Virus record (IMG/VR): IMGVR_UViG_3300002835_000127
Span: 55,452-75,451 of that record
Direction: 5' to 3' (one strand)
Length of the DNA: 20,000 nt
Source of the DNA: an uncultured virus (IMG/VR IMGVR_UViG_3300002835_000127)
Lineage: Duplodnaviria; Heunggongvirae; Uroviricota; Caudoviricetes
The notes below the pieces were generated by a model that made no database searches, was not told where the DNA came from, and saw only the letters and a list, made by a program, of their open reading frames with translations. Positions 1,669 to 17,306 of this stretch are shown piece after piece. The translations under genes and the position numbers were made by a program. Within the stretch, counting starts at the first letter, position 1, and every line of letters starts with the position of its first letter.

Positions 1669-2564
1669 TATTTTCTCTTATTAAATACAAATGGTGGTAG
1701 TGACTTAAAGTCCTTTAGATAATTAATGCAGCAAAATTCCTTCTCTGGTGAATCTATTATAACATCGACAGAAAGACCAAATGTTGGTATTCTTTTAGAT
1801 AATCTTCCGGAAGGCTTAGAATTAACAGGGAATCCGTTTTCATCCTCGCTCTCAGACTCTGCATGAATCATAATTGGATTACTACCGAACTTCCATGTGG
1901 AGCAACTAAGAAACAAAGCCTCCCTTGTACTAAGACCCCCGTCATTGAATAAATGATTAAGAAATCTAAAAGATACAGGTACATCCGATTTATAATAGCA
2001 ACCGGATATGAGTTCCGTTACCGAAAAAAGGCTGGGCTTATCGTCATTAACTACCGATATTCTCTTCTGGGTTTGCTTAGACATTAAATCAAACTTAACC
2101 GAAAATCTCTCTATAGTCTCCTTCCTGTTTCCATATGCACTTCCTATTCTAACTATTATCGATCTCCCCTTCTGGCCCAGCACATCCAATATGGACCCTA
2201 GGCTCTCCAAAAGTGTTATTGTTTTATCAGGAACCCCGTCTAGTTGACTAGCCAAAAAATATTCCTTCGGTATTATAAAGCAGGTCCTAAATTTATTAAT
2301 ATTAGAAATCTCGTGTATACTAGATAGTATCCCTGAAATTTTAGGATCCTCCTCGTCAAAACTAAAATCAACGAACAGTTCCGGATTATCAAATTCGCTT
2401 ATATCCAGACATAATATGTTAAGTCCTAGATTTGAATTATAAACAATCGAATCCCTAACTAGCTTAAGAAAATCATAAACAGATTTTATTTTAACCTGCC
2501 CGTTTCCTTTTATTTTCTTCGGGAGACCGATGTACCCTAAATTAGACTTGTCTAAAGAAATCAT
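1668..2564 (-). CDS. uvsE: UV-damage endonuclease (UvsE/UVDE) homolog, probably catalytically inactive
   Basis: Colinear with the UvsE scaffold (NLGY, G.AYG.K, NDDK, N.GGL, AL...TW, P..H.ES, D.I...KE), but most metal-binding His/Asp/Glu positions are substituted. Confidence 0.75.
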   Translation of the reverse strand: MISLDKSNLGYIGLPKKIKGNGQVKIKSVYDFLKLVRDSIVYNSNLGLNILCLDISEFDNPELFVDFSFDEEDPKISGILSSIHEISNINKFRTCFIIPKEYFLASQLDGVPDKTITLLESLGSILDVLGQKGRSIIVRIGSAYGNRKETIERFSVKFDLMSKQTQKRISVVNDDKPSLFSVTELISGCYYKSDVPVSFRFLNHLFNDGGLSTREALFLSCSTWKFGSNPIMIHAESESEDENGFPVNSKPSGRLSKRIPTFGLSVDVIIDSPEKEFCCINYLKDFKSLPPFVFNKRK

Positions 2565-3100: not shown

Positions 3101-3652
3101 CTATATATCAGAACTTTGTTCTTTATCCTGATGCTTCAGGATATCTCTGAATTTAGACGCTAATTCATAATCCTCATTCTTAATAGCTTTCTGCATCAAG
3201 CTCTCTATTAAATAAGAGTCATTGGGTTCACCCTCGGGTTGCTCATCCTTTAATGAGTTAATTATAAGAGCTATTCGTTGAGGTGCATAGATAACCTCAA
3301 GTCTCGAGTTTACTATATTAGGATCTTCAATATTTTCCTCCTCCTGGTCATCGATATCCTCGTCTATCTCATCCTCAACAGGTTCCCAGTCGCCATTGTC
3401 CCAGTTTATGATCCAAGGACCGTATGTTATGTCGGATATATCCCCGTCTACTACCTGTTTTAGTATAGTCTTAAGCTCTCCCTTTATGTCATTCTTGGTA
3501 AGAGAATCGCTAAAAGGTTTTCTTTTAATGCCAGGTATAACATTGCTACCCTCACCTATTCCCATTTTGAATGCCTTATAGACCTCAAAAATAGAATCCC
3601 AATCTAAACTGGATATAACTTTATCGATAAGTTTTGAATGCTCTTTCCTCAT
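3101..3652 (-). CDS. Hypothetical protein with acidic insert and C-terminal UVR (UvrB/UvrC) motif
   Basis: C-terminal LMQKAIKNEDYELASKFRDILK matches the UVR helical-hairpin consensus (M..A...EDYE.AA..RD). Confidence 0.75.
   Translation of the reverse strand: MRKEHSKLIDKVISSLDWDSIFEVYKAFKMGIGEGSNVIPGIKRKPFSDSLTKNDIKGELKTILKQVVDGDISDITYGPWIINWDNGDWEPVEDEIDEDIDDQEEENIEDPNIVNSRLEVIYAPQRIALIINSLKDEQPEGEPNDSYLIESLMQKAIKNEDYELASKFRDILKHQDKEQSSDI
3102..3109 (-). promoter_or_regulatory. Putative late promoter GATATATA
   Basis: Overlaps the stop of the upstream gene and lies 4 nt before the GTG at 3097. Confidence 0.55.
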
Positions 3653-4107: not shown

Positions 4108-5244
4108 TTATAGATTTGCAAAAGGATCAAATGAGGATGGGCTGTAATTAGGCGATATCCAATTTGTACCCTCTAGTATTTTTATTCTGTCTAATGTTAT
4201 TGATTTTCTTTCTAGTGAAATTCCTCTTTCTATCTCCGCTTCTGAATCAGAAACAACTTTATCAGGAAATACTGTGTCATCCAGCCACATGAGCTTGTAA
4301 TTTCTTCTGATGTTATCAGAGACCTTATTTCTATTCTCTGAGGAGTCCACATCCTTCATGGTTCTCAATATAAATCCAGAAGCCCAATTGAGAAATTCAT
4401 TGCTATTTAGTAGCTCTTTTGGCTGTATATTCTTCCATTGCTCTGATGTGTTCATCGCTTCTATTAAAGACTCGCTTTTTCTAGGCGTGAACCCCATTTT
4501 CTTGCCATTCTGCGGGATTTCCCAAACAGATGGTACCGCATCACCTTTATCACCCACAAACATCTTATTCAGAACGAAAAATTCACGATCAACCTCGTTT
4601 AATTCGCACTTGGAAAGCAGCGTCTTTAATTTACCCCTATCCGGTGATATAACAGAACCCATATTAAAAATGCTAGCTTCCTCCTCTTTTTCCAACCAAT
4701 TGGACTTCCATCCGATAGGAGTAGTTACTACGTTCTTTTTATTGTTGCTATTCCACGTTATAGTCCAATTCGATCCTTCAAATCTAGCTAGCTGATGTAA
4801 ATCTTTATCACCAGATACCACTATACAATCTTCTCCGTTATTATTAAAGTACTTCGACCACATATAGAGAAGGTCGTCACCCTCCGCTCCGGATACTTTA
4901 GAATAAATGAATCCCATTTTCTCCAGTTGGCGACCAAAAGAATCCATAAGATCGAAGAAAATAGTCCAATCGACATTCTCATCCTTTGTTCTATTTGACT
5001 TATATCCGCCATTTTCAATCTCAATTTCTCTTCTCCAGCTTTTGCTATCGGCTGTAAAAATAAGTCTTCCACCTGAAGGCAAATTGTTTAATGAGGAGCA
5101 CAGGTCAGTCGCTACTTTTCTAATAAACATAGTCTGGTCTGATTTTTTAGAAAAAACCTTACCAGGATCCACATTGCCATAACCAGCAAAAACCCCAAAG
5201 GTTTTGTGGAATATGTAATTTCCGTCAACACAAATATTAATCAT
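4108..5244 (-). CDS. rnh: RNase H / 5'-3' flap exonuclease (T4 rnh family)
   Basis: VDGN, ADSKSWRR, YKSNR, EGDD, SGDKDLHQL and GDKGDAVP motifs of the FEN/5'-3' exonuclease family. Confidence 0.9.
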   Translation of the reverse strand: MINICVDGNYIFHKTFGVFAGYGNVDPGKVFSKKSDQTMFIRKVATDLCSSLNNLPSGGRLIFTADSKSWRREIEIENGGYKSNRTKDENVDWTIFFDLMDSFGRQLEKMGFIYSKVSGAEGDDLLYMWSKYFNNNGEDCIVVSGDKDLHQLARFEGSNWTITWNSNNKKNVVTTPIGWKSNWLEKEEEASIFNMGSVISPDRGKLKTLLSKCELNEVDREFFVLNKMFVGDKGDAVPSVWEIPQNGKKMGFTPRKSESLIEAMNTSEQWKNIQPKELLNSNEFLNWASGFILRTMKDVDSSENRNKVSDNIRRNYKLMWLDDTVFPDKVVSDSEAEIERGISLERKSITLDRIKILEGTNWISPNYSPSSFDPFANL

Positions 5245-5770
5245 TCTGTTCTATTTTTTTCAATACACTATATAGTTCCTTCGGTATCCTGTTAAATGCA
5301 GGATCAGTTATAGAGGAATCGTAATCTATAAAATTCAAGAAGTCTTTCTCGTCTGCCTTTATTCTACGGTCAACGTCGTCTGCATCTCTTCTCATAGACA
5401 TTCTATCTCTTCTTATATTCTCGTCGATGTCAACATAGAGAATAATGGACTCGCTTCTGTCTTCAGGTGATAACTGAGAAATTCCAGAAGGTGTCATTAT
5501 AAATAAATTAGATTTGTGAAACTCCGATTTACTCGTTCCGTAAACCCATCCATTAAATATGGTGTGCTCCAAAAAAAGATCTTCCAGTATCATCCCATAA
5601 GCATCGGACTCCTTTATGAAATAGTAATCTATACCCTCTTCCTCATCGGATCTCATCGGTCTAGTTGTATGGGAAACACAATAATTGAAGCCTTCCTCAA
5701 CCATCATCTTTCTCAAGTGGTCCTTGCCAGAAGCTCCCTTTCCTGCTATTATAACTCTTTTTTTATTCAT
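5237..5770 (-). CDS. gmk: Guanylate kinase
   Basis: P-loop GKGASGKD, signature SHTTRPMRSDEEEGIDYYF, and YGTS. Confidence 0.9.
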   Translation of the reverse strand: MNKKRVIIAGKGASGKDHLRKMMVEEGFNYCVSHTTRPMRSDEEEGIDYYFIKESDAYGMILEDLFLEHTIFNGWVYGTSKSEFHKSNLFIMTPSGISQLSPEDRSESIILYVDIDENIRRDRMSMRRDADDVDRRIKADEKDFLNFIDYDSSITDPAFNRIPKELYSVLKKIEQND

Positions 5771-7055: not shown

Positions 7056-8378
7056 TCAAAATTTGGATGATAAATCATCAGCCTCTGACTTATCGTTTCT
7101 TATCTCTACGAATCTAGGCAAAAATAGTGATCTATTATCAAACTTGTCAGTAATTGTAACGTTGTATTGCACAGCACATATCTTCCCTCGAAGGGCATCT
7201 GGGTTAGCACTCAATGATTTAAGGTCCTCGTCGGTAAAACCTGATCCTATTTTAACATGCAAGGTTTCAGATAGGTCCGTGCATACAAGTCCACCTATGA
7301 AACCCTCCCTTTTACCCTCTCCTGCGTACCATCCCCGAATGACAAGATCACATTCGTTAACCTCCTTGAATTTCACCCAGCTTTTTGATCTTTTACATTC
7401 GTATAAATGATCATTCTTACATATAACTCCCTCTCCCCCTGCATCCACTATTTTTTGGTATACTGAAGCAATCTGAGAGGGATCGTCAAGTTCCCACATT
7501 GTAGCTAATTTTACTGGCTCGTTCTCTTCGACGTTTTTCATAGCAGACTCTAGTGTCTGTCTTCTTACCGAGTAGGGTAAAATTCCAACACCAGCTCTTA
7601 GCGTATCGTATTCTTCGAGATCAAATACATTGAATATGATACTATCCCCTATATTATCTGGGGCAGTCCCCTTCAGTATCTGCGTAACCTTACCACTTAC
7701 TGATTTTCTATTGTGATCTGTCAATTCACCATCAAAGAACCAAGAGCCCTTCAATCCTGAAAAGTTCATTATCTGTTTGAGAGAAAATGTAATACTGTGC
7801 AATTTTCCTGCATCTAGTTCATTAAAAGCTCTTGTAAAATAACTAAAATCTCCTTCCTTATAGATAGCTATTACCCTTACACCGTCATATTTTTCCTCGC
7901 AGTATATCTTATCCCAGTTCAGTAGTGAATCCTGGTCATCGGTTGCTAGCATAACAGAAGGATCCGGAATTACCTCTTTGCCAATAGCCTTGTTAATCAG
8001 CTTAGCACCAATACCGACATTCATTCTCTTTGTTAGCACCTTCATTAGGATCTTTCTAAGATCGGAGTCGTCGTTATCTTCAGTGATCCTGGTGTTTACC
8101 ATTTGATTAGCTTCCATCCTTATAGAATTATTAGCTGCAGGGGCAGATTTTAATTTTTCAACTAGATCTCTGAAGTTATCTAGCCCAAAAGAATCATTCG
8201 GTTCGTCTGAAAAATTAAGCTTATGTAACTTAGTAGTAACAAATGGATTGAAGCACACGTCAAAAACGTAGGCTAATTCAGGAGTCCAGTTTTGTTTGAT
8301 TATTTCCTGCTTTTTCTTCTGTGATCCCTCTCCAGTAAGTTCCTCTAATTCCTTTAAGATTCTTAGTTCTTTAATCAT
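7056..8378 (-). CDS. gp30: ATP-dependent DNA ligase (T4 gp30-like)
   Basis: KxDG motif EEKYDGVR, then FDGE, FDL, EGVICK, WVKFK, and OB-fold GSGF...LFLPRF. Confidence 0.93.
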   Translation of the reverse strand: MIKELRILKELEELTGEGSQKKKQEIIKQNWTPELAYVFDVCFNPFVTTKLHKLNFSDEPNDSFGLDNFRDLVEKLKSAPAANNSIRMEANQMVNTRITEDNDDSDLRKILMKVLTKRMNVGIGAKLINKAIGKEVIPDPSVMLATDDQDSLLNWDKIYCEEKYDGVRVIAIYKEGDFSYFTRAFNELDAGKLHSITFSLKQIMNFSGLKGSWFFDGELTDHNRKSVSGKVTQILKGTAPDNIGDSIIFNVFDLEEYDTLRAGVGILPYSVRRQTLESAMKNVEENEPVKLATMWELDDPSQIASVYQKIVDAGGEGVICKNDHLYECKRSKSWVKFKEVNECDLVIRGWYAGEGKREGFIGGLVCTDLSETLHVKIGSGFTDEDLKSLSANPDALRGKICAVQYNVTITDKFDNRSLFLPRFVEIRNDKSEADDLSSKF

Positions 8379-8401
8379 TTCGCTTCTATTTAGTTATAAC
8401 A

Positions 8402-8409
8402 CAAATATA
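8402..8409 (-). promoter_or_regulatory. Bacteroidota-type -7 promoter box TATATTTG (TAnnTTTG)
   Basis: Exact match to the TAnnTTTG consensus, 23 nt upstream of the ligase ATG and just after a terminator. No clear -33 TTTG at canonical spacing. Confidence 0.55.
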
Positions 8410-8412
8410 AAC

Positions 8413-8440
8413 AAAAAAACCGTAGGTATTCCGACGGTTT
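8413..8440 (-). terminator. Rho-independent terminator after the portal genes
   Basis: AAACCGT-CGG-AATA-CCT-ACGGTTT hairpin running into a U7 tract. Confidence 0.75.
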
Positions 8441-8485
8441 ATGGAGAATGCTGAATGTAATTACGTATTAGAGTGTTAGGCTGGA

Positions 8486-10129
8486 CTATGCAGTCTCTTC
8501 CTCAGCGGGTGCTGCCGCTTCCGCTGGTGCTGCCGCTTCTTCTTCCGCTGGAGTTGCCTCGCCCTCAGCTCCGCTAGTAGAGCTTTCCTTTTTAGCAGAT
8601 TTAGCTTCGAGCTCTTTGTATGAAGCATTGCCCTCTATCTGCTCCGGGGTTAGACCTAAAAATCTCTGAACAAGGAAATCTTTATCAAAATAAGGCTGCT
8701 CTTCTTCACCAACTTTAACTTTCATGTCAGCAAGAGATTTTATAAAATCCCCTCTTTTAACTAGATTAGCAAGTTCAACCAGATCGTTGAATTCGCTTTC
8801 TCTTACGAAATTAATTCCAAGATTAGTTTTAAAGCTTCTATCTTTTACAAGCTCCGGATAATCAAGACACATTTGTATATAAAGAGGCTTAACTATGATT
8901 TCCTGATAAATCGATCTCAATCTGGAAAGAAACTTCTCGAACCTTATCTCGTCTCTTTCTAAAGAATCGATGCTAATCTGGTTGTTTGCGGGTGTTCCCC
9001 CTCTATAAGCAAATCTTGCATACGGTATTTTAGAATCTTGCTTTAGTTTATTGAAGAAGTAAAGCACGTTGTCCATGATATTAAAATCAGGTCCAGCTGC
9101 ATTTAGTGTTTCTATGGTAGGGGAAACACCATCCTTCTCAGGGAAAAGATAGTTTTTATAGAACTGAATTTTCGGTCTTCCGTTAACAGTCAATTCACCT
9201 GAATTGTCGTTTATAGATATTTCCTCTTTATGATAAGACATTATTTGTCCTAGCGTTTGCATGGCCTTTTGTGGTGACTGTGTACCTATAGGTATAACAA
9301 ACTTCAATCTATATGAAGCGTTCATAACGTTCCATATAATCCTGCTGTTCTCCATTATTTTCAGGATATTATAGGATCTAACTAGTCTCTCAACATAACT
9401 TACCCTGGAGATTGCATTACCCTTAGCATATGATATGTAGATAACCTGCTCATTCTTAAGCTTTCTTGTCATTTGGGGATTCTTTGGATACTGAACCCAA
9501 ACCTGTTGAAAATCATTCTCGCCAACTTTTTCAACCATAGGCTGAAGTGATGTTGCATCGAGTTCTTTAAATCCAATAACTTGCTTGCCTCTGCTATCGT
9601 AGATTATCTCATAAGCTAGAAACCCATCAATTAGGAGCTGTCTAAATACCTGCCAAGCCAATATGCTTTCCTGAAAATTGAAAAGATGATAGATCCGGTA
9701 AAAATTCTCCATCAGTTTATCTTTCACCTTATCACTTACGTCCAAATTCTTGATCTCAGGATATGCAAAATAATTCTTCTCGTCGTAAACCACAGCTTCA
9801 TCAGTTACCGTATCGAGTATAAACTCAATCTCACCGTTTAGCGAAAACTTTCTAAGAAAGTTTCTTTTGTCTATGTAATCCTTATCGAAATAAGCTATGT
9901 ACTTTCTTACTTTTGTATCCGAATGAGAAACTGTCCAATAGAAAGCATCGCTTTCAGTAAATCCAGATCCTTGCTCGTTGAAGAATTCCGATTCGGTCTT
10001 ACCTATGGCCTGCGAATTTCTAACAACCATATCTTCGTACTTCATACCAAACCTAGATATCTGAGAAAGACTTCTTAGTATCGTTCCGAATGCACTATTT
10101 GGTTGTATGGGATCTATAAATCCTGCCAT
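8486..10129 (-). CDS. gp20: Portal vertex protein (T4 gp20 family), paralog B
   Basis: EIEFILD.VTDEAVV, IDGFLAYE, SYVERL, F.IPIG, NYLFP, YF..KL...SKIP..R and RDEIRFEKFLSRLR motifs typical of gp20. Acidic Ala/Pro tail. Confidence 0.9.
   Translation of the reverse strand: MAGFIDPIQPNSAFGTILRSLSQISRFGMKYEDMVVRNSQAIGKTESEFFNEQGSGFTESDAFYWTVSHSDTKVRKYIAYFDKDYIDKRNFLRKFSLNGEIEFILDTVTDEAVVYDEKNYFAYPEIKNLDVSDKVKDKLMENFYRIYHLFNFQESILAWQVFRQLLIDGFLAYEIIYDSRGKQVIGFKELDATSLQPMVEKVGENDFQQVWVQYPKNPQMTRKLKNEQVIYISYAKGNAISRVSYVERLVRSYNILKIMENSRIIWNVMNASYRLKFVIPIGTQSPQKAMQTLGQIMSYHKEEISINDNSGELTVNGRPKIQFYKNYLFPEKDGVSPTIETLNAAGPDFNIMDNVLYFFNKLKQDSKIPYARFAYRGGTPANNQISIDSLERDEIRFEKFLSRLRSIYQEIIVKPLYIQMCLDYPELVKDRSFKTNLGINFVRESEFNDLVELANLVKRGDFIKSLADMKVKVGEEEQPYFDKDFLVQRFLGLTPEQIEGNASYKELEAKSAKKESSTSGAEGEATPAEEEAAAPAEAAAPAEEETA
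8508..8539. repeat. 18-bp-period coding tandem repeat (EAAAPA x2) in the portal B tail
   Basis: ggtgctgccgcttc at 8508 and 8526. Confidence 0.7.
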
Positions 10130-10140
10130 TTCTATTTTTT

Positions 10141-10148
10141 TATTTATA
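10141..10148 (-). promoter_or_regulatory. T4-type late promoter TATAAATA
   Basis: Exact T4 late consensus overlapping the portal A stop codon, 11 nt upstream of the portal B ATG. Confidence 0.6.
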
Positions 10149-11718
10149 AAGTAACTTCTGGTGCTTCTTCCTCTCCGCCTTCCTTCTCTTTCTTCTTGGC
10201 ATTCTTTTCTTTTGCTATCTTGTTAGCTTTAATGTCTGCAGGTGTAAGTCCGAGAAAATTCTCAATTAAGTAAGTCTGTGAAAAATAAGGTTTATCCCCG
10301 TCTTCCATTATAGCAGCCAATGAATCTACGCTTTCTTTTCTCTTAGTGATCAATTCCATCTCCTGGTTTACCCTAAAAGGGTTCTCACTGATGTACTTAA
10401 GTCCAAGTTGGCTCTTAAAAACTAGATCTTTTTCTAATTCCGGATTGTCTTTACATATTTGTAACCAAAGTGGCTTTATAATGATATCCTGAAAATTGGT
10501 TCTCAATCTACTTATGAACTTACTAAATCTTACCTCTTCCTTGTCCAGGCCATCCGCAGTGTTGGAATATGTTGCACTAGAAGATCCATCTAACCCCTTA
10601 AATCTTGTAGCAGGTATTTTAGATTCCTCTATGAATCTATCGTAGAAATATGCAAGAGGGGCAGGATCATTTAAGTTCGGTCCCTCCATTGTCAAGGGCT
10701 CAATTGTAGGTTGACCGTTTTGGCCCTGTGGTATCAGATAATTCTTATAGAATTGTATCTTAGGTGCTCCGTCAACTAGCAATTCACCAGTATCATCGCT
10801 CAAGCTAATATCCTCCTTATAGATACTCATAAGTTCACCCAAGGTCTGCATAGCTTTCTGAGGTGATCTTGATCCAACAGGAACGGTCATTTTAAGCTTG
10901 AATGAAGCATTCATCACTGACCAAATTACCCTAGTGTATTCTATAATTCTTAGGGTATTATAAGGTCTAATTAATCTCTCAACATAACTTAATCTGGAAA
11001 CTGAATTTCCCTTAGCATAAGACATGTATATGATCTGGGAGTCATATAGCATTCTTGTCTTTTTAGGGTCATTCGGAAATTGTATCCAAACGTTGACATG
11101 TCTTCCGTCTGGTTGTTTTTCTACGCTAGGTATTAAAGAAGTAGCGTCCAATTCTTTAAATCCAATTATCTCTTTCCCCCTATTGTCCCAGATTATTTCA
11201 AATGCAAGGAATCCGTCCACCATGAATTGTCTAAAGAATTGCCATGCTGTTATATCATCGCTAAATCCCCAGATGTCATATATTTTTCTAAAAACGTCAT
11301 AAACCTTTTCTCTTGTTTTTTCTTTTAGAGTAGTTATATCTAGAAAATCGGGATATGCGTAATAATTAGAAGGGTCGTAGTTTATGGATTCGTCACAAAC
11401 AATATCAAGAACTCCTTCTATCTCCGGGTTAAGAGAGAATTTCCTAAGATAATCCCTCTTTCCCTTATAATCCTTGTCGAAATAAGAGATATACTGTTTG
11501 ACCATAGTATCTTGCTTCGCAAGACTATACATCATATTCTCATCAGGAACGTTTGTTTTGTTCTGATTAATGAAAGCAGCTTCAGTAGCGCCAACAGCCA
11601 TGGAGTTCTTAATCACCATGTCCTCGTATTTCATACCGAACTTAGAGATCGACTTAACAGATTCCCTAATCCTCTGAAATACCGGATTACCATTTTCGTT
11701 ATCTATAAAACCAGCCAT
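10144..11718 (-). CDS. gp20: Portal vertex protein (T4 gp20 family), paralog A
   Basis: PEIEGVLD.VCDESI, VDGFLAFE, SYVERL, NYLIP, SKIP..RF and KEEVRFSKFISRLR motifs. Colinear with 8486-10129 along its length. Confidence 0.9.
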   Translation of the reverse strand: MAGFIDNENGNPVFQRIRESVKSISKFGMKYEDMVIKNSMAVGATEAAFINQNKTNVPDENMMYSLAKQDTMVKQYISYFDKDYKGKRDYLRKFSLNPEIEGVLDIVCDESINYDPSNYYAYPDFLDITTLKEKTREKVYDVFRKIYDIWGFSDDITAWQFFRQFMVDGFLAFEIIWDNRGKEIIGFKELDATSLIPSVEKQPDGRHVNVWIQFPNDPKKTRMLYDSQIIYMSYAKGNSVSRLSYVERLIRPYNTLRIIEYTRVIWSVMNASFKLKMTVPVGSRSPQKAMQTLGELMSIYKEDISLSDDTGELLVDGAPKIQFYKNYLIPQGQNGQPTIEPLTMEGPNLNDPAPLAYFYDRFIEESKIPATRFKGLDGSSSATYSNTADGLDKEEVRFSKFISRLRTNFQDIIIKPLWLQICKDNPELEKDLVFKSQLGLKYISENPFRVNQEMELITKRKESVDSLAAIMEDGDKPYFSQTYLIENFLGLTPADIKANKIAKEKNAKKKEKEGGEEEAPEVTL

Positions 11719-11721
11719 TCA

Positions 11722-12366
11722 CTACTTATTTTTATTTTCTAGACCAGAATTATCTTTTAATTTCGATCTATAGGAATTATATATCTCAATCGGAGAAGAC
11801 CCTTGAAGAAGGGCTACACTAAGATATGGTATTTTTTTCCAATCATCATAGCCTATAACATAGACTTCAGACATTGATGAAATATCGAATCCTTTAGTGC
11901 TTCCAATATATCCAGTACCTTTCAATAAAGACTTTACATTATCACCACTTAGGTTCACGGGAGATTGGCTTCCCGATTTTTTATTAGAATCTATTATGCT
12001 CTCTGAAAAATCATAGACCCTCTCCAATATCTTAACCCTTTCATCAGGTGGGGTAGCTATTAAATCCGATCCATATAGGATGTTGTTTAGATCTTTTGAT
12101 TTCTTAACATCAAAAGCTAAAACTATCGGTAGTCTGTTTATGAACTCCTTCTCCTTTTTTTTACCGTCATCGGGTTTCTGCTTAGGATTATATCTAAAAA
12201 TATAGATCTTACCGGGAAGAAATTGGCCGTCGAACTTTTCAGGTCGAAAATCCCTGTTCGATAACTTTATATAGGAGCTTATAAAATACTCGTCAGTTTT
12301 AGAAACAGTCTCAGATTGGGATATGAATCCGTCCTTGTATGATTTTATTTTTTCAGAAAAGCTCAT
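11722..12366 (-). CDS. gp2: DNA end protector protein (T4 gp2-like)
   Basis: PGKIYIFRYNPK...NRLPIVL resembles the gp2 motif G..Y.F.Y.PK....D..PLV. Adjacent to gp4 and the portal genes. Confidence 0.65.
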   Translation of the reverse strand: MSFSEKIKSYKDGFISQSETVSKTDEYFISSYIKLSNRDFRPEKFDGQFLPGKIYIFRYNPKQKPDDGKKKEKEFINRLPIVLAFDVKKSKDLNNILYGSDLIATPPDERVKILERVYDFSESIIDSNKKSGSQSPVNLSGDNVKSLLKGTGYIGSTKGFDISSMSEVYVIGYDDWKKIPYLSVALLQGSSPIEIYNSYRSKLKDNSGLENKNK

Positions 12367-12848
12367 TTACTATTAAAAAGAAATTTCTCGTCAACTACGC
12401 CAAATCTAAAACCTCTTTGGATAGCCCATTCTTTAGCAGCTTTAAATTTTGCCTGATTTGTTATCCATATTTTCATATTATAGTTATAGCTCTCTAGTTT
12501 TTTAAGAGTCATATTTTTACCCTCGTATATCGGCTTTTGAGTTTGTGACTCTGGCTTAACCTCTATTATCCACTCCTGATAGGTGTCGTCTTCTTTTAGA
12601 GTCTTTATGTAAAAATCCACATAGTATTTGTGCATTTTCTTATCTAATGGATTCCAGTAATCTATAAAAAGAGGTTCAGAGCTCCATTTAACTATCCTTT
12701 CGTTTCTATCGCAATATGCACAGAATCTCTGCTCCCACGAAGATCTATAAATGATATTATGTATATCACCTATGTACTTATCGGGATTCTGTGGACTATA
12801 AAGCCCATGTTTGTGTTTTCCGTTAGGTTTAACCTTTTTTATGGACAT
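12363..12848 (-). CDS. gp4: Head completion nuclease (T4 gp4; TnsA-like PD-(D/E)XK)
   Basis: P.NP.KYIGD, YRSSWE, WSSEP, YYVDF, IEVKP and NQAKFKAA. Confidence 0.9.
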   Translation of the reverse strand: MSIKKVKPNGKHKHGLYSPQNPDKYIGDIHNIIYRSSWEQRFCAYCDRNERIVKWSSEPLFIDYWNPLDKKMHKYYVDFYIKTLKEDDTYQEWIIEVKPESQTQKPIYEGKNMTLKKLESYNYNMKIWITNQAKFKAAKEWAIQRGFRFGVVDEKFLFNSK

Positions 12849-12849
12849 A

Positions 12850-13209
12850 TTAAACGTTGTAACTATTATCCTCCCCTGTTATATAACTGAAGGGTATAGT
12901 TTTAGGATTCTTTGGCGGGTGTAATTTCTTCCATCCCTTAGCAAATCCATTCTTTGCAACCTGAGTGAAGTAGGCAAATGGATTGTTAGATTTAGCAGGG
13001 TCAAATCTATTCCAATATTTGCAAAGATCCTCCATGGCAAAAGCCATACAATCGTCCTTATCGTCAGGATCCTTGTAAGCCATCTTCTTAGAAATACCTT
13101 CTATCATGAGGGTAAACATATCGATTGTCTCTCTTGTTAGCTGACCCTTCTCTTTAGATTCGGATACGGCTCTAAGGAGCTCACTGTTTTTAACATAAAC
13201 TTTTGCCAT
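12850..13209 (-). CDS. gp55: Late transcription sigma factor (T4 gp55-like), minimal 119-aa form
   Basis: YVKNSELL N-terminus, DDCM..AMED, and FDPAKSNNPFAYFTQ..KN.F, the gp55 region-2 signature. Confidence 0.85.
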   Translation of the reverse strand: MAKVYVKNSELLRAVSESKEKGQLTRETIDMFTLMIEGISKKMAYKDPDDKDDCMAFAMEDLCKYWNRFDPAKSNNPFAYFTQVAKNGFAKGWKKLHPPKNPKTIPFSYITGEDNSYNV

Positions 13210-13230: not shown

Positions 13231-13266
13231 AAAAAAAATCCCCCATTCTTATTAGAAACAGGGGAT
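13231..13266 (-). terminator. Terminator-like hairpin in the gp55 leader
   Basis: ATCCCC-TGT-TTCT-AATA-AGAA-TG-GGGGAT running into a U8 tract. Confidence 0.6.
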
Positions 13267-13329: not shown

Positions 13330-13476
13330 GGCCTCGTCTTCCTCGCTGTCCTCTACGTGTTTGTTTATCGGCTTAGTTGGAGCCTTTGCGAACTTTCCCT
13401 TTAGAGAATCTACGAAAGGCTTACCTGATTTATTTTGTTCTGGATTCTCAGGAGCAAAATAATAGTTACGACTTAC
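13315..13476 (-). CDS. -1 frame C-terminal extension (53 aa) of the scaffold-like protein
   Basis: Open frame VSRNYYFAPENPEQNKSGKPFVDSLKGKFAKAPTKPINKHVEDSEEDEAETNK*. It has no ATG, begins at the slippery site and contains an AKAP repeat. Confidence 0.75.
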   Translation of the reverse strand, partial: VSRNYYFAPENPEQNKSGKPFVDSLKGKFAKAPTKPINKHVEDSEEDEAETNK

Positions 13477-14005
13477 TTTTTTTTTTGCAATTCAGATTCT
13501 TCTAAGTTATATCTGAGCTTGTCATTTACTCCAAAGTCTATAGCATCTCTGTGCTTGCTTCTAGAGGTAGCAGTATTTGGGCCCGATTTAGTAGCCACTC
13601 CTTCTTCTACCTTTCTATATCCATGCAGCAAATCCAGTGAAAGATCTATTTTGTCATTGCTTCCTGGAGCTTTCGCATATCCGTGTTTCTGTGCCATACC
13701 AGCTAAAGCATTTTTATCGTGCGTTCTCTCAATTTTACCGAAATTAGGAGCTTCTGCTAATCCTTGAGATCTATCTTCTACTTCGCTAGCTTCGTCGATA
13801 TTATAACCAATAGCATATCCAGCAACATCGAAATCTGTTGGCTTTTGTCCTTTAATTCCTTCCGCATAATGGGCAGCTTTAGGATTCTTTAGGTCGTGAG
13901 CCATTGGTTTCTCCTGATCCTTAGATCTAGGAGCTTTAGCATATGTTGGCTGTGATTGCTTTTCTTTAACATTTTTAGTTCTCGTAGGTGCTTTAGATAA
14001 AGTAG
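13378..14005 (-). repeat. Degenerate protein-level repeats (LSKAP, YAKAP, LAEAP, YAKAP, FAKAP; GYNIDE/GYRKVEE/RYNLEE)
   Basis: Read from the translation. The series spans the frameshift site. Confidence 0.65.
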
Positions 14006-16067
14006 TATTTGATTCCTTTACTTCCTCGGTGCCATCCTCTTCTTCAGACTCGTCACTTTCTATATCACTAGCAGGATCATTGTCGAAATAGTCTTTATCG
14101 AAATCACTTGTCTTTTCAGCATTTTTTTCTGCTGCATCTGACATAGCTTCCTCTAAATCTTGAATATCATTTACTCTATGATCCTCTGTTCTACCCGCAT
14201 CGGTTAAAATTGTATATCTTCCCGAAGTACCGTCTATTGAAACGATTTTACCGGTTTCTCCTGATTCTTTTATTTTAACATAGTCTCCTATATTAAATTT
14301 AGCATCCTCTATAAGGTACATGCTAGGATCTAAATCAACATTTTCAATTTTCTCGATCTCCTCGTTGATGCTAGCCCATTTATTTCTTAAAACCTTCAAT
14401 TCCCTTTTTAGCATTTTCTCTGCTTCTTTAAGCTCAGACGAATGCGAGTAGTTAGGATTTTCTATCAAGGATTGAACTTTGGCCAACTGTTCCTCAACAT
14501 TTTGTATGTTTTCAAGAAGACTAGATCTGTCATTTAGAAGAACCGATTTAGTTCTTAATTCACCAACCAAGAATTCGCTTAGACCTTCAGAAATATCATA
14601 TCTTAATGTGTCTTTTACTAACTTAACAGCTTGCATGCTATTAACAGAGAATATTGAATTCTCTCTCATAGCTTCATTTATTCTTTGAAGGTAGATCTTA
14701 TCGTTCCATTTGAACAGATTAACAGAAAGTCCCTCGTAAATTCTAGATACGATCGACTTAGCAAAATCAAGCTCCACGAAAGAATTGTAATTTTCATAAA
14801 CGGTAGCTATATCTTTTACAAGAGACATATCATTATATCCCATATAAGAGGATACTTCCAATCCTATTATCTTAGCCATTTCGTTAACATTAGAGAAAGC
14901 TAATTTATTTCTACCAACAAATACATTAGGATTATTCTCCGTTCCTTCTGTTATACTAACTACCTTCTTGCCGATTGAGAAATGAACACCCGCTTCATTT
15001 ATCTTAACATCGGGTCTAGAAGTAATTCCCAATAGATTAACAAATGTATTACCGTATGAAGAAGCTGCAGTCTTAGCGTCTATTCTCTGTACGCCATTCT
15101 CTGTTGCTTCGAAAATAAATCCACCAAGGCCAAATGCGAAATTTTGATCCTCATTAGTTGCCATTGCGGAATAAGCTCTCTCTACGTATGATTCACCTTG
15201 ATTAGTTTCAGGGATAGAAAGTCTGCTTGAATCTTTTCGACTTTCGTTAAGATTCAAATAGTTTATAAGGTTTTTAACTACAGGATTGAAAGAATATTTA
15301 GAGATTTGATTAACTAGGAGACCGTTTGACTTGTCTTTAGATACCATCCACTCATTTAAACACTCATAAAGATCAGAGTAAAATTCTCTAGATCCAGATC
15401 CCTTAATAGAATCTATCACTTTAGAAACGTATATCTCTCTGTTGTAAGTATTAGCTTTACCTAGAAGTGATTCAAAGACCTCCTTAGATTTAGCATCCCA
15501 TGTCAATTGGCTTAAATCATTAACAAAATTTTCAATAACTGCATACTCTGGGATATTCTTATTAACAAGGATATTTTTATAATTCTCTAACATGATCTTA
15601 GCCTTCATGTGCTCGGCAACAGGTGAACTAAGAAGAGACTTAACAGACTCAAGAACACCTAGATTTTTAATAGACTCAGAAGTTAAAAAAGAATTAACAG
15701 ATTTATCACCTTTTATGTGAGAAAGGGACTCGTTTAAAGAACTCATCTCTTTATCACCTGATTTTTCTTTAGAAGGCGTAATCCAAGTTCCGGAATTATC
15801 TCCTTTAGATGTATTCTGGCTCCAAGATTCCAAAAGTGAAGAAGCTGCTCTTTTGGAAGCTTCCATTTCTTGATTTCTGAAATCATTCCAGATGTTTGAT
15901 GTATTTTCTCTTAAGAAACCAGAAACCTCAACATCATTGGAATTTTTAAGTCCCTCTATAAGGGTATTTTTATTTGATGCCTCGTTTAAGAAGTTCTCAC
16001 ACAGAGATTTAACCTCCGGTGAGGTAGTAGTTTCTTTTAATTTTTGTACTTTGTTAATGAAGTCCAT
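13473..16067 (-). CDS. Large prohead core/scaffold-like or internal head protein (864 aa; 917 aa with -1 shift)
   Basis: Many (L/I/V)-x-E-(S/A/G) motifs like T4 gp21 protease sites, coiled-coil and acidic segments, an embedded KOW/SH3-like domain and AKAP repeats. Double late promoter and location next to head genes. The function is an inference. Confidence 0.6.
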   Translation of the reverse strand: MDFINKVQKLKETTTSPEVKSLCENFLNEASNKNTLIEGLKNSNDVEVSGFLRENTSNIWNDFRNQEMEASKRAASSLLESWSQNTSKGDNSGTWITPSKEKSGDKEMSSLNESLSHIKGDKSVNSFLTSESIKNLGVLESVKSLLSSPVAEHMKAKIMLENYKNILVNKNIPEYAVIENFVNDLSQLTWDAKSKEVFESLLGKANTYNREIYVSKVIDSIKGSGSREFYSDLYECLNEWMVSKDKSNGLLVNQISKYSFNPVVKNLINYLNLNESRKDSSRLSIPETNQGESYVERAYSAMATNEDQNFAFGLGGFIFEATENGVQRIDAKTAASSYGNTFVNLLGITSRPDVKINEAGVHFSIGKKVVSITEGTENNPNVFVGRNKLAFSNVNEMAKIIGLEVSSYMGYNDMSLVKDIATVYENYNSFVELDFAKSIVSRIYEGLSVNLFKWNDKIYLQRINEAMRENSIFSVNSMQAVKLVKDTLRYDISEGLSEFLVGELRTKSVLLNDRSSLLENIQNVEEQLAKVQSLIENPNYSHSSELKEAEKMLKRELKVLRNKWASINEEIEKIENVDLDPSMYLIEDAKFNIGDYVKIKESGETGKIVSIDGTSGRYTILTDAGRTEDHRVNDIQDLEEAMSDAAEKNAEKTSDFDKDYFDNDPASDIESDESEEEDGTEEVKESNTTLSKAPTRTKNVKEKQSQPTYAKAPRSKDQEKPMAHDLKNPKAAHYAEGIKGQKPTDFDVAGYAIGYNIDEASEVEDRSQGLAEAPNFGKIERTHDKNALAGMAQKHGYAKAPGSNDKIDLSLDLLHGYRKVEEGVATKSGPNTATSRSKHRDAIDFGVNDKLRYNLEESELQKKK
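13476..13486 (-). other. Slippery site: A10 tract ending in in-frame A_AAA_AAG immediately before TAA
   Basis: The minus strand reads CAA AAA AAA AAG TAA. The heptamer at 13482-13476 is the canonical bacterial -1 frameshift motif in the correct phase. Confidence 0.7.
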
Positions 16068-16088
16068 GAGTTAATAATTTTTTTGTAT

Positions 16089-16128
16089 TCTATATATCTT
16101 TTTCAGAGTACTTTTTGGTCTATATATC
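16089..16128 (-). promoter_or_regulatory. Tandem late promoters GATATATAGA x2, 30 bp apart
   Basis: Identical 10-mers at 16119-16128 and 16089-16098 in the 62-nt gap upstream of the 864-aa gene. Confidence 0.75.
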
Positions 16129-16129
16129 A

Positions 16130-16615
16130 TTATCTGCAAACCAATATCTCTAAAATTACCCTTTTATCTAAGTGGGGATTACACACCGTTATACCTCCGT
16201 CCTGGTATACTGGTCCAGGTTTAGCCAGATTCCATCCATATTGCTCAGAATCAAAAGTTGTGATATTAACACCGCTCAATACAGTAAGTTCGCCCATAAA
16301 ATATTCATTGCCCCTGTACTCCCATGTAATGAACTTGTCTTTTTCTAAAGTCCCAGCTGGGTATACTGCTTTAATAGCTATAAAGCTAACGTACCCTCCA
16401 GGATCCGCTATGTCCGACTGGCTTATCAGTGCGCAGGATTCAGCTCTAAGATTTATTGTGGATTTTGAATATGCAGGAACATCAAATAACAAATCCTCTA
16501 ACATAAGCACTATTTGAGGATTCATCATGCTGTTTGAATCTATAACCAGGTTAGTTCTTTCGAATTTCAATCCCTCTGGTTCTATATAGGGACATATAAC
16601 GGGTCTTGTTGCCAT
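16130..16615 (-). CDS. Hypothetical beta-rich, putative structural protein (paralog of 16617-17306)
   Basis: Shares VSFI...A.Y, W.Y.GN, MGE..VL.G, GWN, GP and GGIT..NP blocks with its neighbour. Confidence 0.75.
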   Translation of the reverse strand: MATRPVICPYIEPEGLKFERTNLVIDSNSMMNPQIVLMLEDLLFDVPAYSKSTINLRAESCALISQSDIADPGGYVSFIAIKAVYPAGTLEKDKFITWEYRGNEYFMGELTVLSGVNITTFDSEQYGWNLAKPGPVYQDGGITVCNPHLDKRVILEILVCR

Positions 16616-16616
16616 A

Positions 16617-17306
16617 TTAGTTTGCTGTTATTACTACCAGTTTAACTGGCGATTCGGTTGGGTTTGTAAAGGTGATGCCACCCAAACTAGGATTGGATAC
16701 AGGACCTGTGTGACCTATATTAGAGAAAGAACTTATATTCCACCCCTTCCAATTCTGATCCTCTTTTACAGCGCCGGTTAAAACCATTATTTCACCCATC
16801 GGGTATCTAGTGTTTCCGTCGTAGTCCCAAAATAATACTCTAGCAGCTCCCTTTTGTGTCGGTAGATAATAAGCTCTTGCCAATATAAAGCTAACCTCGT
16901 TTAATGTGTTGGCAAAATTACCAGTATCTACATCGATTGAAGTATCCGGAGCTATTACAAATGTTTGCTTTTGGTAACTAGAGAAAGAAAGAAAAGGATG
17001 GAAAAAAGAAGCTAAGCTCAGGGTATCCATCACATTTGACTGCAGGCATACATTAAAAGAGGACTTGAAGTATTTAAAAAAAGCAGGTTGGTTCTTATAC
17101 TTAAACGTCCAATCTATCAGCGGTAATGCTTCCCTTGTTCTAGCAACGTTAGTGTATCTAGCAGTAAAAGTACAAGCACCAGGTGTGAAAACTGGCGCAC
17201 TAGTAGATCCACCCTGTACAGTTTGGGTATATGTACCGCCTGTACTACCTCCTCCGTCGTAATTTAAGTTATTTGACTCCTGTTGGATCTGCGGGTAATC
17301 TGCCAT
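16617..17306 (-). CDS. Hypothetical beta-rich, putative structural protein with Gly/Thr-rich N-terminal extension
   Basis: Paralogous to 16130-16615 and has its own late-promoter motif. Confidence 0.75.
   Translation of the reverse strand: MADYPQIQQESNNLNYDGGGSTGGTYTQTVQGGSTSAPVFTPGACTFTARYTNVARTREALPLIDWTFKYKNQPAFFKYFKSSFNVCLQSNVMDTLSLASFFHPFLSFSSYQKQTFVIAPDTSIDVDTGNFANTLNEVSFILARAYYLPTQKGAARVLFWDYDGNTRYPMGEIMVLTGAVKEDQNWKGWNISSFSNIGHTGPVSNPSLGGITFTNPTESPVKLVVITAN

Follow-up and report, generated by a model that had tools for sequence, protein, structure and literature searches.

The window analysed here, a stretch of 20,000 nucleotides (nt), makes up the final 20 kb of a 75,451-bp linear IMG/VR contig from an uncultured tailed virus (IMGVR_UViG_3300002835_000127; G000:C1:55452-75451), for which CheckV gives a completeness of 27%. 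It contains two adjacent genes on the minus strand, each encoding a portal protein of the phage T4 gp20 type: portal A (524 amino acids, aa; P0001) and, directly downstream, portal B (547 aa; P0002). A preliminary description of this DNA had reported two gp20-type proteins of these lengths, colinear from MAGFID to near the C-terminus but with different tails, and had argued that they are not an assembly duplicate. These statements hold, and the gene boundaries given there are exact (Table 1).

Portals A and B align by BLASTP from residue 1 to approximately residue 515 with 256/521 identities (49%), 71% positives and 10 gaps, and the alignment includes all six shared blocks listed earlier (FGMKYEDMV, RKFSLN.EIE, IGFKELDATSL, SYVERL, SPQKAMQTLG and PKIQFYKNYL). 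Both proteins start with MAGFID and differ in their C-terminal tails; the pair recurs in independent assemblies from many samples. Each matches the Pfam family PF07230 (Portal_T4) over nearly the full profile and above the curated cut-off of 22.9 bits, portal A with 192.9 bits (1.1e-56, profile positions 7–427 of 433) and portal B with 217.2 bits (4.5e-64, positions 6–427), and a profile search of the whole 75,451-bp contig returns A and B as the only portal matches. A megablast search of the A/B pair against phage records gave no match, and the clade profile retrieves T4 gp20 chains in the PDB at an E-value of about 4e-29. An AlphaFold2 model of portal A is of moderate quality (mean predicted local distance difference test score, pLDDT, 63.3; predicted template modelling score, pTM, 0.53), and its best Foldseek matches are the T4 gp20 chains 6uzc, 9mkb, 9lu7 and 3ja7 (E 2e-16 to 1e-12, TM-scores 0.39–0.48; 0.40–0.42 for the closest, at E 2e-16). 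As modelled, portal A has the portal fold with wing, stem, clip, crown and tunnel loop; the same fold is predicted for portal B from its 49% identity to A and its stronger Pfam score.

The C-termini of both proteins (positions 10144-10160 in the window, and in relatives) are acidic tails of low complexity. Twenty-seven of 47 A proteins end in x-T-L and 39 of 47 B proteins in VTL, FTL, ATL or TTL, the terminal motif having been lost in the window's portal B, which ends in EEETA. The last four residues are identical between A and B in 14/47 genomes, a likeness that could stem from binding of a shared partner, from conversion confined to this region or from a DNA signal where the gene ends.

The pair is present throughout two groups of related giant phages. 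For the window's own clade (clade 1), two scans of IMG/VR yielded 128 distinct loci, and in 124/124 of those with enough DNA an A-type gene directly precedes a B-type one; the excluded loci (L015, L052, L061 and L178) end inside or just past the first gene. In the first sample of 80 loci both genes are full-length and intact in 65, the other 15 being cut by contig ends, and the spacer between A and B in these 65 relatives is 1–22 nt. A second clade (clade 2), consisting of the relatives of P0123, was reached via a search of 1.84 billion cluster representatives, and has the pair in 79/80 loci, with the remaining locus cut by a contig end. Taken together, an A-type then a B-type gene occurs in 203/203 informative IMG/VR loci, three of which (L137, L171 and L221) have an interrupted copy. 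Five genomes of 85–100% completeness (230–349 kb) have exactly two portal matches each, and these are adjacent; in all, 1745 protein clusters match at E<=1e-20, and the genomes extend up to approximately 430 kb. The two copies are therefore jointly retained, and frequent loss of one of them is not seen.

Phages outside these clades have single portals. Six complete huge-phage genomes and phage PAU encode one full-length portal each, and the IMG/VR relatives of LR756500 have no second portal in the 4 kb to each side of the first. Portal A matches 871 phage records, and a second place matches in only two of them, LR756501 and its equal-length record LR756503; the one in LR756501 amounts to a 22-bit fragment. 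Two partial loci, each cut at the portal, represent P0124/P0125, the lineage closest to the pair. The nearest named relative is the LR756500 portal, with 43–46% identity to A and B, and the portals of other huge phages (LR756501-4 and the Prevotella Lak phages) are 33–37% identical. These single-portal huge phages have the N-terminal MAGF...GMKYDDMV motif in common with the pair, and their tunnel loop is acidic, but, unlike the two-portal clade, they have one portal per genome. In Prevotella phage Lak-A1 (L089; MK250016) the single portal frame contains six in-frame TAG codons under translation table 11, in keeping with the stop-codon recoding described for Lak phages.

Phylogenetic analysis places the duplication deep in the history of these phages. 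A first tree, with 47 unique A/B pairs and seven outgroups, was computed quickly under LG+G4 with supports from the Shimodaira-Hasegawa-like approximate likelihood ratio test and without bootstraps; the single-portal outgroups of the analysis as a whole are LR756500, LR756502, LR756504, Lak-A1 and PAU, plus L092-L097. The A clade and the B clade are each supported at 100 and A+B at 99, such that A and B form two long-lived, reciprocally monophyletic groups; their stems are nearly equal in length (0.37 and 0.41), and the branching order within A mirrors that within B. A second quick LG+G4 tree, likewise without bootstraps and including clade 2 and 50 representatives, recovers (A+a2+P0123) at 99 and (B+b2) at 96, joined at 99, where a2 and b2 are the clade 2 proteins, and the single-portal huge phages fall outside A+B. 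The second topology therefore indicates one duplication, predating the split of clades 1 and 2.

Purifying selection acts strongly and equally on A and B, with no relaxation seen in either. In the 12 of 1081 genome pairs that alone had dS within 0.05–1.5 for A as well as B, the ratio of nonsynonymous to synonymous divergence (dN/dS) is 0.027 in A (maximum 0.05) and 0.020 in B (maximum 0.04). When all 1081 pairs are used, mean dN comes to 0.186 for A and 0.187 for B. Conservation within each paralog is alike in every domain (A/B: stem 0.92/0.92, clip 0.88/0.88, wing 0.82/0.83). Gene conversion between A and B in the gene body was ruled out, within-genome minus between-genome identity being -0.01 to +0.02 in all windows along the genes. 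In the last 24 nt, A and B are slightly more alike within genomes (0.52) than between them (0.455), a value exceeded in 0/2000 permutations but confounded with phylogeny; the window's two sequences carried the stop codon in this analysis and the others did not.

The differences between A and B are concentrated in the parts of the protein that would face the channel. Alignment columns were mapped onto the T4 gp20 domains as given in PMC4493910, and a column was scored as a fixed difference if it is conserved in each paralog yet differs between them. Such differences occupy 19/146 columns in the stem, clip and channel loops (8/39 in the stem alone) versus 7/380 across the remaining regions, namely the N-terminus, wing and crown (odds ratio 8 and p 1e-6 by Fisher's test). 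The derived state at these sites is in A at 12, in B at four and undecided at ten, and portal B is slightly nearer to the single-copy relatives than A. The tunnel-loop tip is acidic in 47/47 A proteins (D in 46, E in one), as in the single-copy relatives, versus basic in 47/47 B proteins (R in 37, K in 10). The tunnel loops of clade 2 have Arg in 10/10 b2 proteins and are strongly acidic in a2, and this clade also retains the paralog differences NYL[M/I]P versus NYLFP and DKEE/DQEE versus the ancestral ERDE at the tunnel-loop end, where portal A has lost an otherwise invariant Arg. The inner clip loop is uncharged in 42/47 A proteins and charged in 47/47 B proteins. The clip-tip block SPQKAMQTLG is common to A and B and largely invariant, and by alignment it appears to correspond to the T4 terminase-binding stretch N291-K296. 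In T4, adjoining tunnel loops touch one another and their deletion alters the number of subunits in the ring, as described in PMC4493910; these loops are also described as holding the packaged DNA.

The genes for portals A and B close a tight five-gene string, following genes coding for gp55-like, gp4-like and gp2-like proteins, in that order, with internal gaps of no more than 14 nt. Hairpins with T-runs lie on either side of the string, and in six relatives (L006, L007, L009, L010, L017 and L018) hairpins with T-runs of differing sequence occupy the same position after B. From this arrangement we infer that A and B are made together from one transcription unit. Downstream of portal B are replication and repair genes assigned by Pfam, coding for a ligase, a clamp loader, a guanylate kinase, an RNase H-like protein and UvdE.

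Table 1. Coordinates of the features discussed; positions refer to the window, and in the last three rows to the named related locus.
Feature	Position	Strand	Support or remark
Terminator-like hairpin and T-run just 5' of the five-gene string	13238..13266	-	hairpin scan
gp55-like late sigma factor, first gene of the string	12850..13209	-	phrog_234, 2.7e-15
gp4-like head completion / head closure protein, TnsA-like nuclease fold	12363..12848	-	phrog_218, 2.4e-45
gp2-like DNA end protector	11722..12366	-	phrog_429, 9e-8; stop 3 nt ahead of portal A start
Portal paralog A, gp20-type, 524 aa (P0001)	10144..11718	-	PF07230
Tunnel-loop region of A, residues 367-393	10540..10620	-	acidic tip, D377 in GLDG
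TATAAATA, overlaps portal A stop codon	10141..10148	-	exact match
Spacer from A stop to B start, 14 nt	10130..10143	-	
Portal paralog B, gp20-type, 547 aa (P0002)	8486..10129	-	PF07230
Tunnel-loop region of B, residues 367-392	8954..9031	-	basic tip, R376 in AYRGG
Hairpin CCGTCGG/CCTACGG (one mismatch) and T7 run 3' of B	8413..8437	-	read by eye; not called by the scan
161-aa and 229-aa paralogs, tandem	16130-16615 and 16617-17306	-	28% identical, E 1e-9
L137, in-frame TAG in A	about 3601-3603		
L171, frameshift in B	about 5170-5310		
L221 (clade 2), A-type first gene split	about 2522-2526		

The preliminary description had also placed a late motif upstream of each portal gene, and this is not borne out. 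The sequence TATAAATA, which matches the T4 late-promoter consensus, has a single exact occurrence on the window's coding strand, located at the A/B junction, and near position 11778 the sequence reads GATATATAATTCC, which differs from it. On both strands of the window there are two matches versus 3.2 expected by chance, and the motif is not conserved in the clade, being present at the junction in 4/46 relatives and upstream of A in 1/46. A late promoter ahead of each portal gene is thus ruled out. Fragments of both portal genes at 90–99% identity are present in two sediment RNA-library runs (one study, Logan contigs), and one 231-nt contig crosses the A/B junction (9986-10216); contigs of this type do not prove transcription, and they are not used as evidence here.

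Both portal genes have A-rich leaders with no Shine-Dalgarno-like sequence. The word TATATTTG is present at positions 8402-8409 of the window (minus strand), upstream of the ligase gene (start 8378), and at the same place in relatives; this and similar TAnnTTTG words lie approximately 24 nt ahead of the start of the next gene. These words and the A-rich leaders are presumably of the promoter and translation style of Bacteroidota, and would fit kinship with Lak and Tenacibaculum phages; a host among the Bacteroidota is conjectured.

The 75,451-bp contig is colinear with kb 21–92 of a complete 289,651-bp relative, G002 (locus L181). Genes for the major capsid protein, prohead protease and baseplate are located elsewhere on the contig, which begins with a 1651-aa open reading frame that is open at the contig end. 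G002 has a tandem pair of tail-tube-like genes (15498-16052 and 16070-16645) directly 3' of the sheath gene, encoding proteins of 184 and 191 aa that are 56% identical and match phrog_45 'tail tube' at 3.6e-8; gp19 holds the same position after the sheath gene in T4. Apart from the portals, this is the sole close tandem pair of virion genes in G002, in which the terminase, sheath, major capsid protein and protease have one match each. The tube-like gene is doubled in 10/10 two-portal genomes examined (G001-G010, comprising G001-G005 and five clade 2 contigs), with pairs 56–60% identical, and LR756500, with its single portal, has one tube-like gene. By colinearity with G002, the corresponding pair of the window's phage would lie just past the contig end. 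The doubled tube-like gene supports a theme of paired variants such as the preliminary description had proposed for the head module.

That proposal had been based in part on a neighbouring paralog pair and a two-length scaffold. The paralog pair is real: tandem genes for proteins of 161 and 229 aa are related to each other (Table 1), and their order is conserved in relatives (54 and 49 matches, respectively, among the 80 first-sample loci) and in G002. Its role in the head module is not substantiated, neither protein having any match in Pfam, PHROG or Atlas. The 161-aa protein is modelled as an all-beta sandwich (pLDDT 75.8) with weak jelly-roll or cupin-like matches, none with E<=0.001, and the two were dropped as candidate head proteins. 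The two-length scaffold could not be identified.

Several other features of these genomes can be noted. An 864-aa protein (13473-16067, minus strand) could not be assigned to a clear family from the window sequence; G002 encodes an ortholog (876 aa, 50% identical) with a PF01471 peptidoglycan-binding domain (3.9e-13) and endolysin-type PHROG matches, and the window protein may have a virion-associated or lysis-related wall-binding role. G002 also encodes a nine-member family of 224–351 aa with leucine-rich-repeat matches (234424-239281, 273173-274696 and 278283-279179), three tandem tail-fibre-like paralogs of 523, 555 and 555 aa (97537-102473), two UvdE-like genes and two CHAP-domain genes. 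Positions 8300-12900 of the window are covered at 96–100% of sampled words in 18 lake-water metagenome runs from 18 studies, 13 of which are possible sources of the same DNA, and the phage thus recurs in lake water.

The best explanation of the two genes is that both encode working portal subunits derived from one ancient tandem duplication. Their conservation suggests, short of proof, that the ring through which DNA enters the head is built of two kinds of subunit. In the reading we favour, tentatively and with somewhat less than even confidence, A and B co-assemble as one mixed ring, most simply an alternating A6B6 ring; in its favour are the predicted tight co-expression of the two genes, their strict co-retention, the complementary charges of the tunnel loops and the parallel duplication of the tube gene. 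The A and B subunits would be neighbours within a single dodecamer at the portal vertex, with the acidic tunnel-loop tips of A and the basic tips of B alternating around the DNA channel, where they could pair. Such a ring would be intrinsically six-fold, above a six-fold neck and tail. A more elaborate version, which we put forward with still more reserve for this large clade of freshwater phages, is an obligate A6B6 hetero-dodecamer whose alternating loops act as a DNA valve and which evolved jointly with a two-protein tail tube, giving a conduit of paired paralogs.

Several considerations weigh against a mixed ring. T4 handles the 12-to-6 step at gp13 (12 copies) and gp14 (six copies) with a homomeric portal, according to PMC12929587, and a six-fold portal is therefore not required; by this analogy the symmetry of an A6B6 ring appears attractive rather than necessary. 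Paralogs that had evolved to avoid mixing would be just as likely to show differences clustered at interfaces, most of the fixed changes are conservative, and no reciprocal charge-swap pair between A and B was seen, though this was looked for with no contact map. The portal and tube duplications both map to one branch, and because of this their co-occurrence counts as a single event and not as a statistical association. Finally, the interrupted copies in L137, L171 and L221 may be assembly errors or a sign that one copy can be lost.

The strongest competing explanation, which we nonetheless regard as somewhat unlikely, is that A and B form two separate homododecamers, A12 and B12, that are used alternatively in different virion populations, capsid or tail variants, stages or hosts, with the differences between them preventing mixing. 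No portal domain is missing from either protein and the clip tip is common to both, so that either could work as a complete portal, and the enrichment of fixed differences in the stem and loops fits insulation as well as it fits co-adaptation; the charge difference in the channel loops could give two channels that handle DNA differently, and the second tube-like gene could serve a second tail variant. Alternative use would, however, need less than is observed, since strict co-retention, tandem order, spacing of 1–22 nt and identical rates are maintained over two deep clades, and the single terminase, sheath, major capsid protein and protease of G002 provide no partner set for a second particle.

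It is unlikely, and to our minds improbable, that one copy is the portal and the other has been repurposed, as a stacked ring, an anchor for internal proteins, an assembly initiator or a decoy for host portal sensors. The asymmetries in A are what such a reading would draw on: its derived state at 12 fixed sites versus four for B, its inner clip loop with no charges in 42/47, and its missing Arg at the tunnel-loop end. Bacterial Avs sensors, moreover, recognise portal and tail-tube proteins, both of which are doubled here, but they also detect many core proteins that are not doubled (PMC13581612). A repurposed copy would be expected to have a changed or lost terminase- and neck-binding clip tip, yet the tip is shared, and the rates are symmetric (stems 0.37 and 0.41; dN 0.186 and 0.187) with equal conservation in every domain, including the clip; it is because of the symmetric rates and the shared tip that we consider repurposing unlikely. 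A redundant duplicate or an assembly artefact, for which one could say only that duplicates arise easily in large phage genomes, is excluded by the 49% identity, the independent assemblies from many samples, dN/dS of 0.02–0.03 in both genes and paralog-specific residues fixed across two deep clades.

Comparison with T4 puts the mixed ring in context. T4 has one portal gene, whose product is a homododecamer (PMC4493910 and PMC12929587). The layout of wing, stem, clip, crown and tunnel loop in T4 gp20 (PF07230; PDB 3JA7, 6UZC, 9MKB and 9LU6/9LU7) aligns with both A and B, and the portal neighbours are gp2-, gp4- and gp55-like; the difference is that two diverged genes always occur together here, and sequence identity with gp20 is low (15–17% in structural alignments). 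T4 also has a major capsid protein, gp23, with a vertex-specialised paralog, gp24, which resembles the present case in being a duplicated structural protein with its copies at different positions of one assembly; in that instance the positions are split within the shell, between hexamers and pentamers. We know of no such division in a portal ring. Rings that passed from homomer to heteromer by gene duplication include the alpha and beta rings of the proteasome, CCT and the proteolipid ring of the V-ATPase, and the route proposed here is the same: a ring homomer duplicates, cross-contacts are kept and mutual dependence follows. Those are cellular machines with demonstrated mixed rings, whereas a mixed portal ring is so far a prediction from gene content and sequence.

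All characterised portals, of tailed phages and of herpesviruses, are to our knowledge described as twelve copies of one protein, and a single-protein portal is the common assumption in models of head assembly, packaging-motor docking and symmetry mismatch. A literature search, with subscription journals mostly outside its coverage, found no paper on phages with two portal genes. A mixed ring of A and B, if confirmed, would give tailed viruses their first known heteromeric portal and revise the textbook account of this structure, and these phages would provide a clean viral case of a homomeric ring turned heteromeric. The two-portal lineage is widespread, and as such would constitute a natural experiment on channel loops, inter-subunit packing and symmetry.

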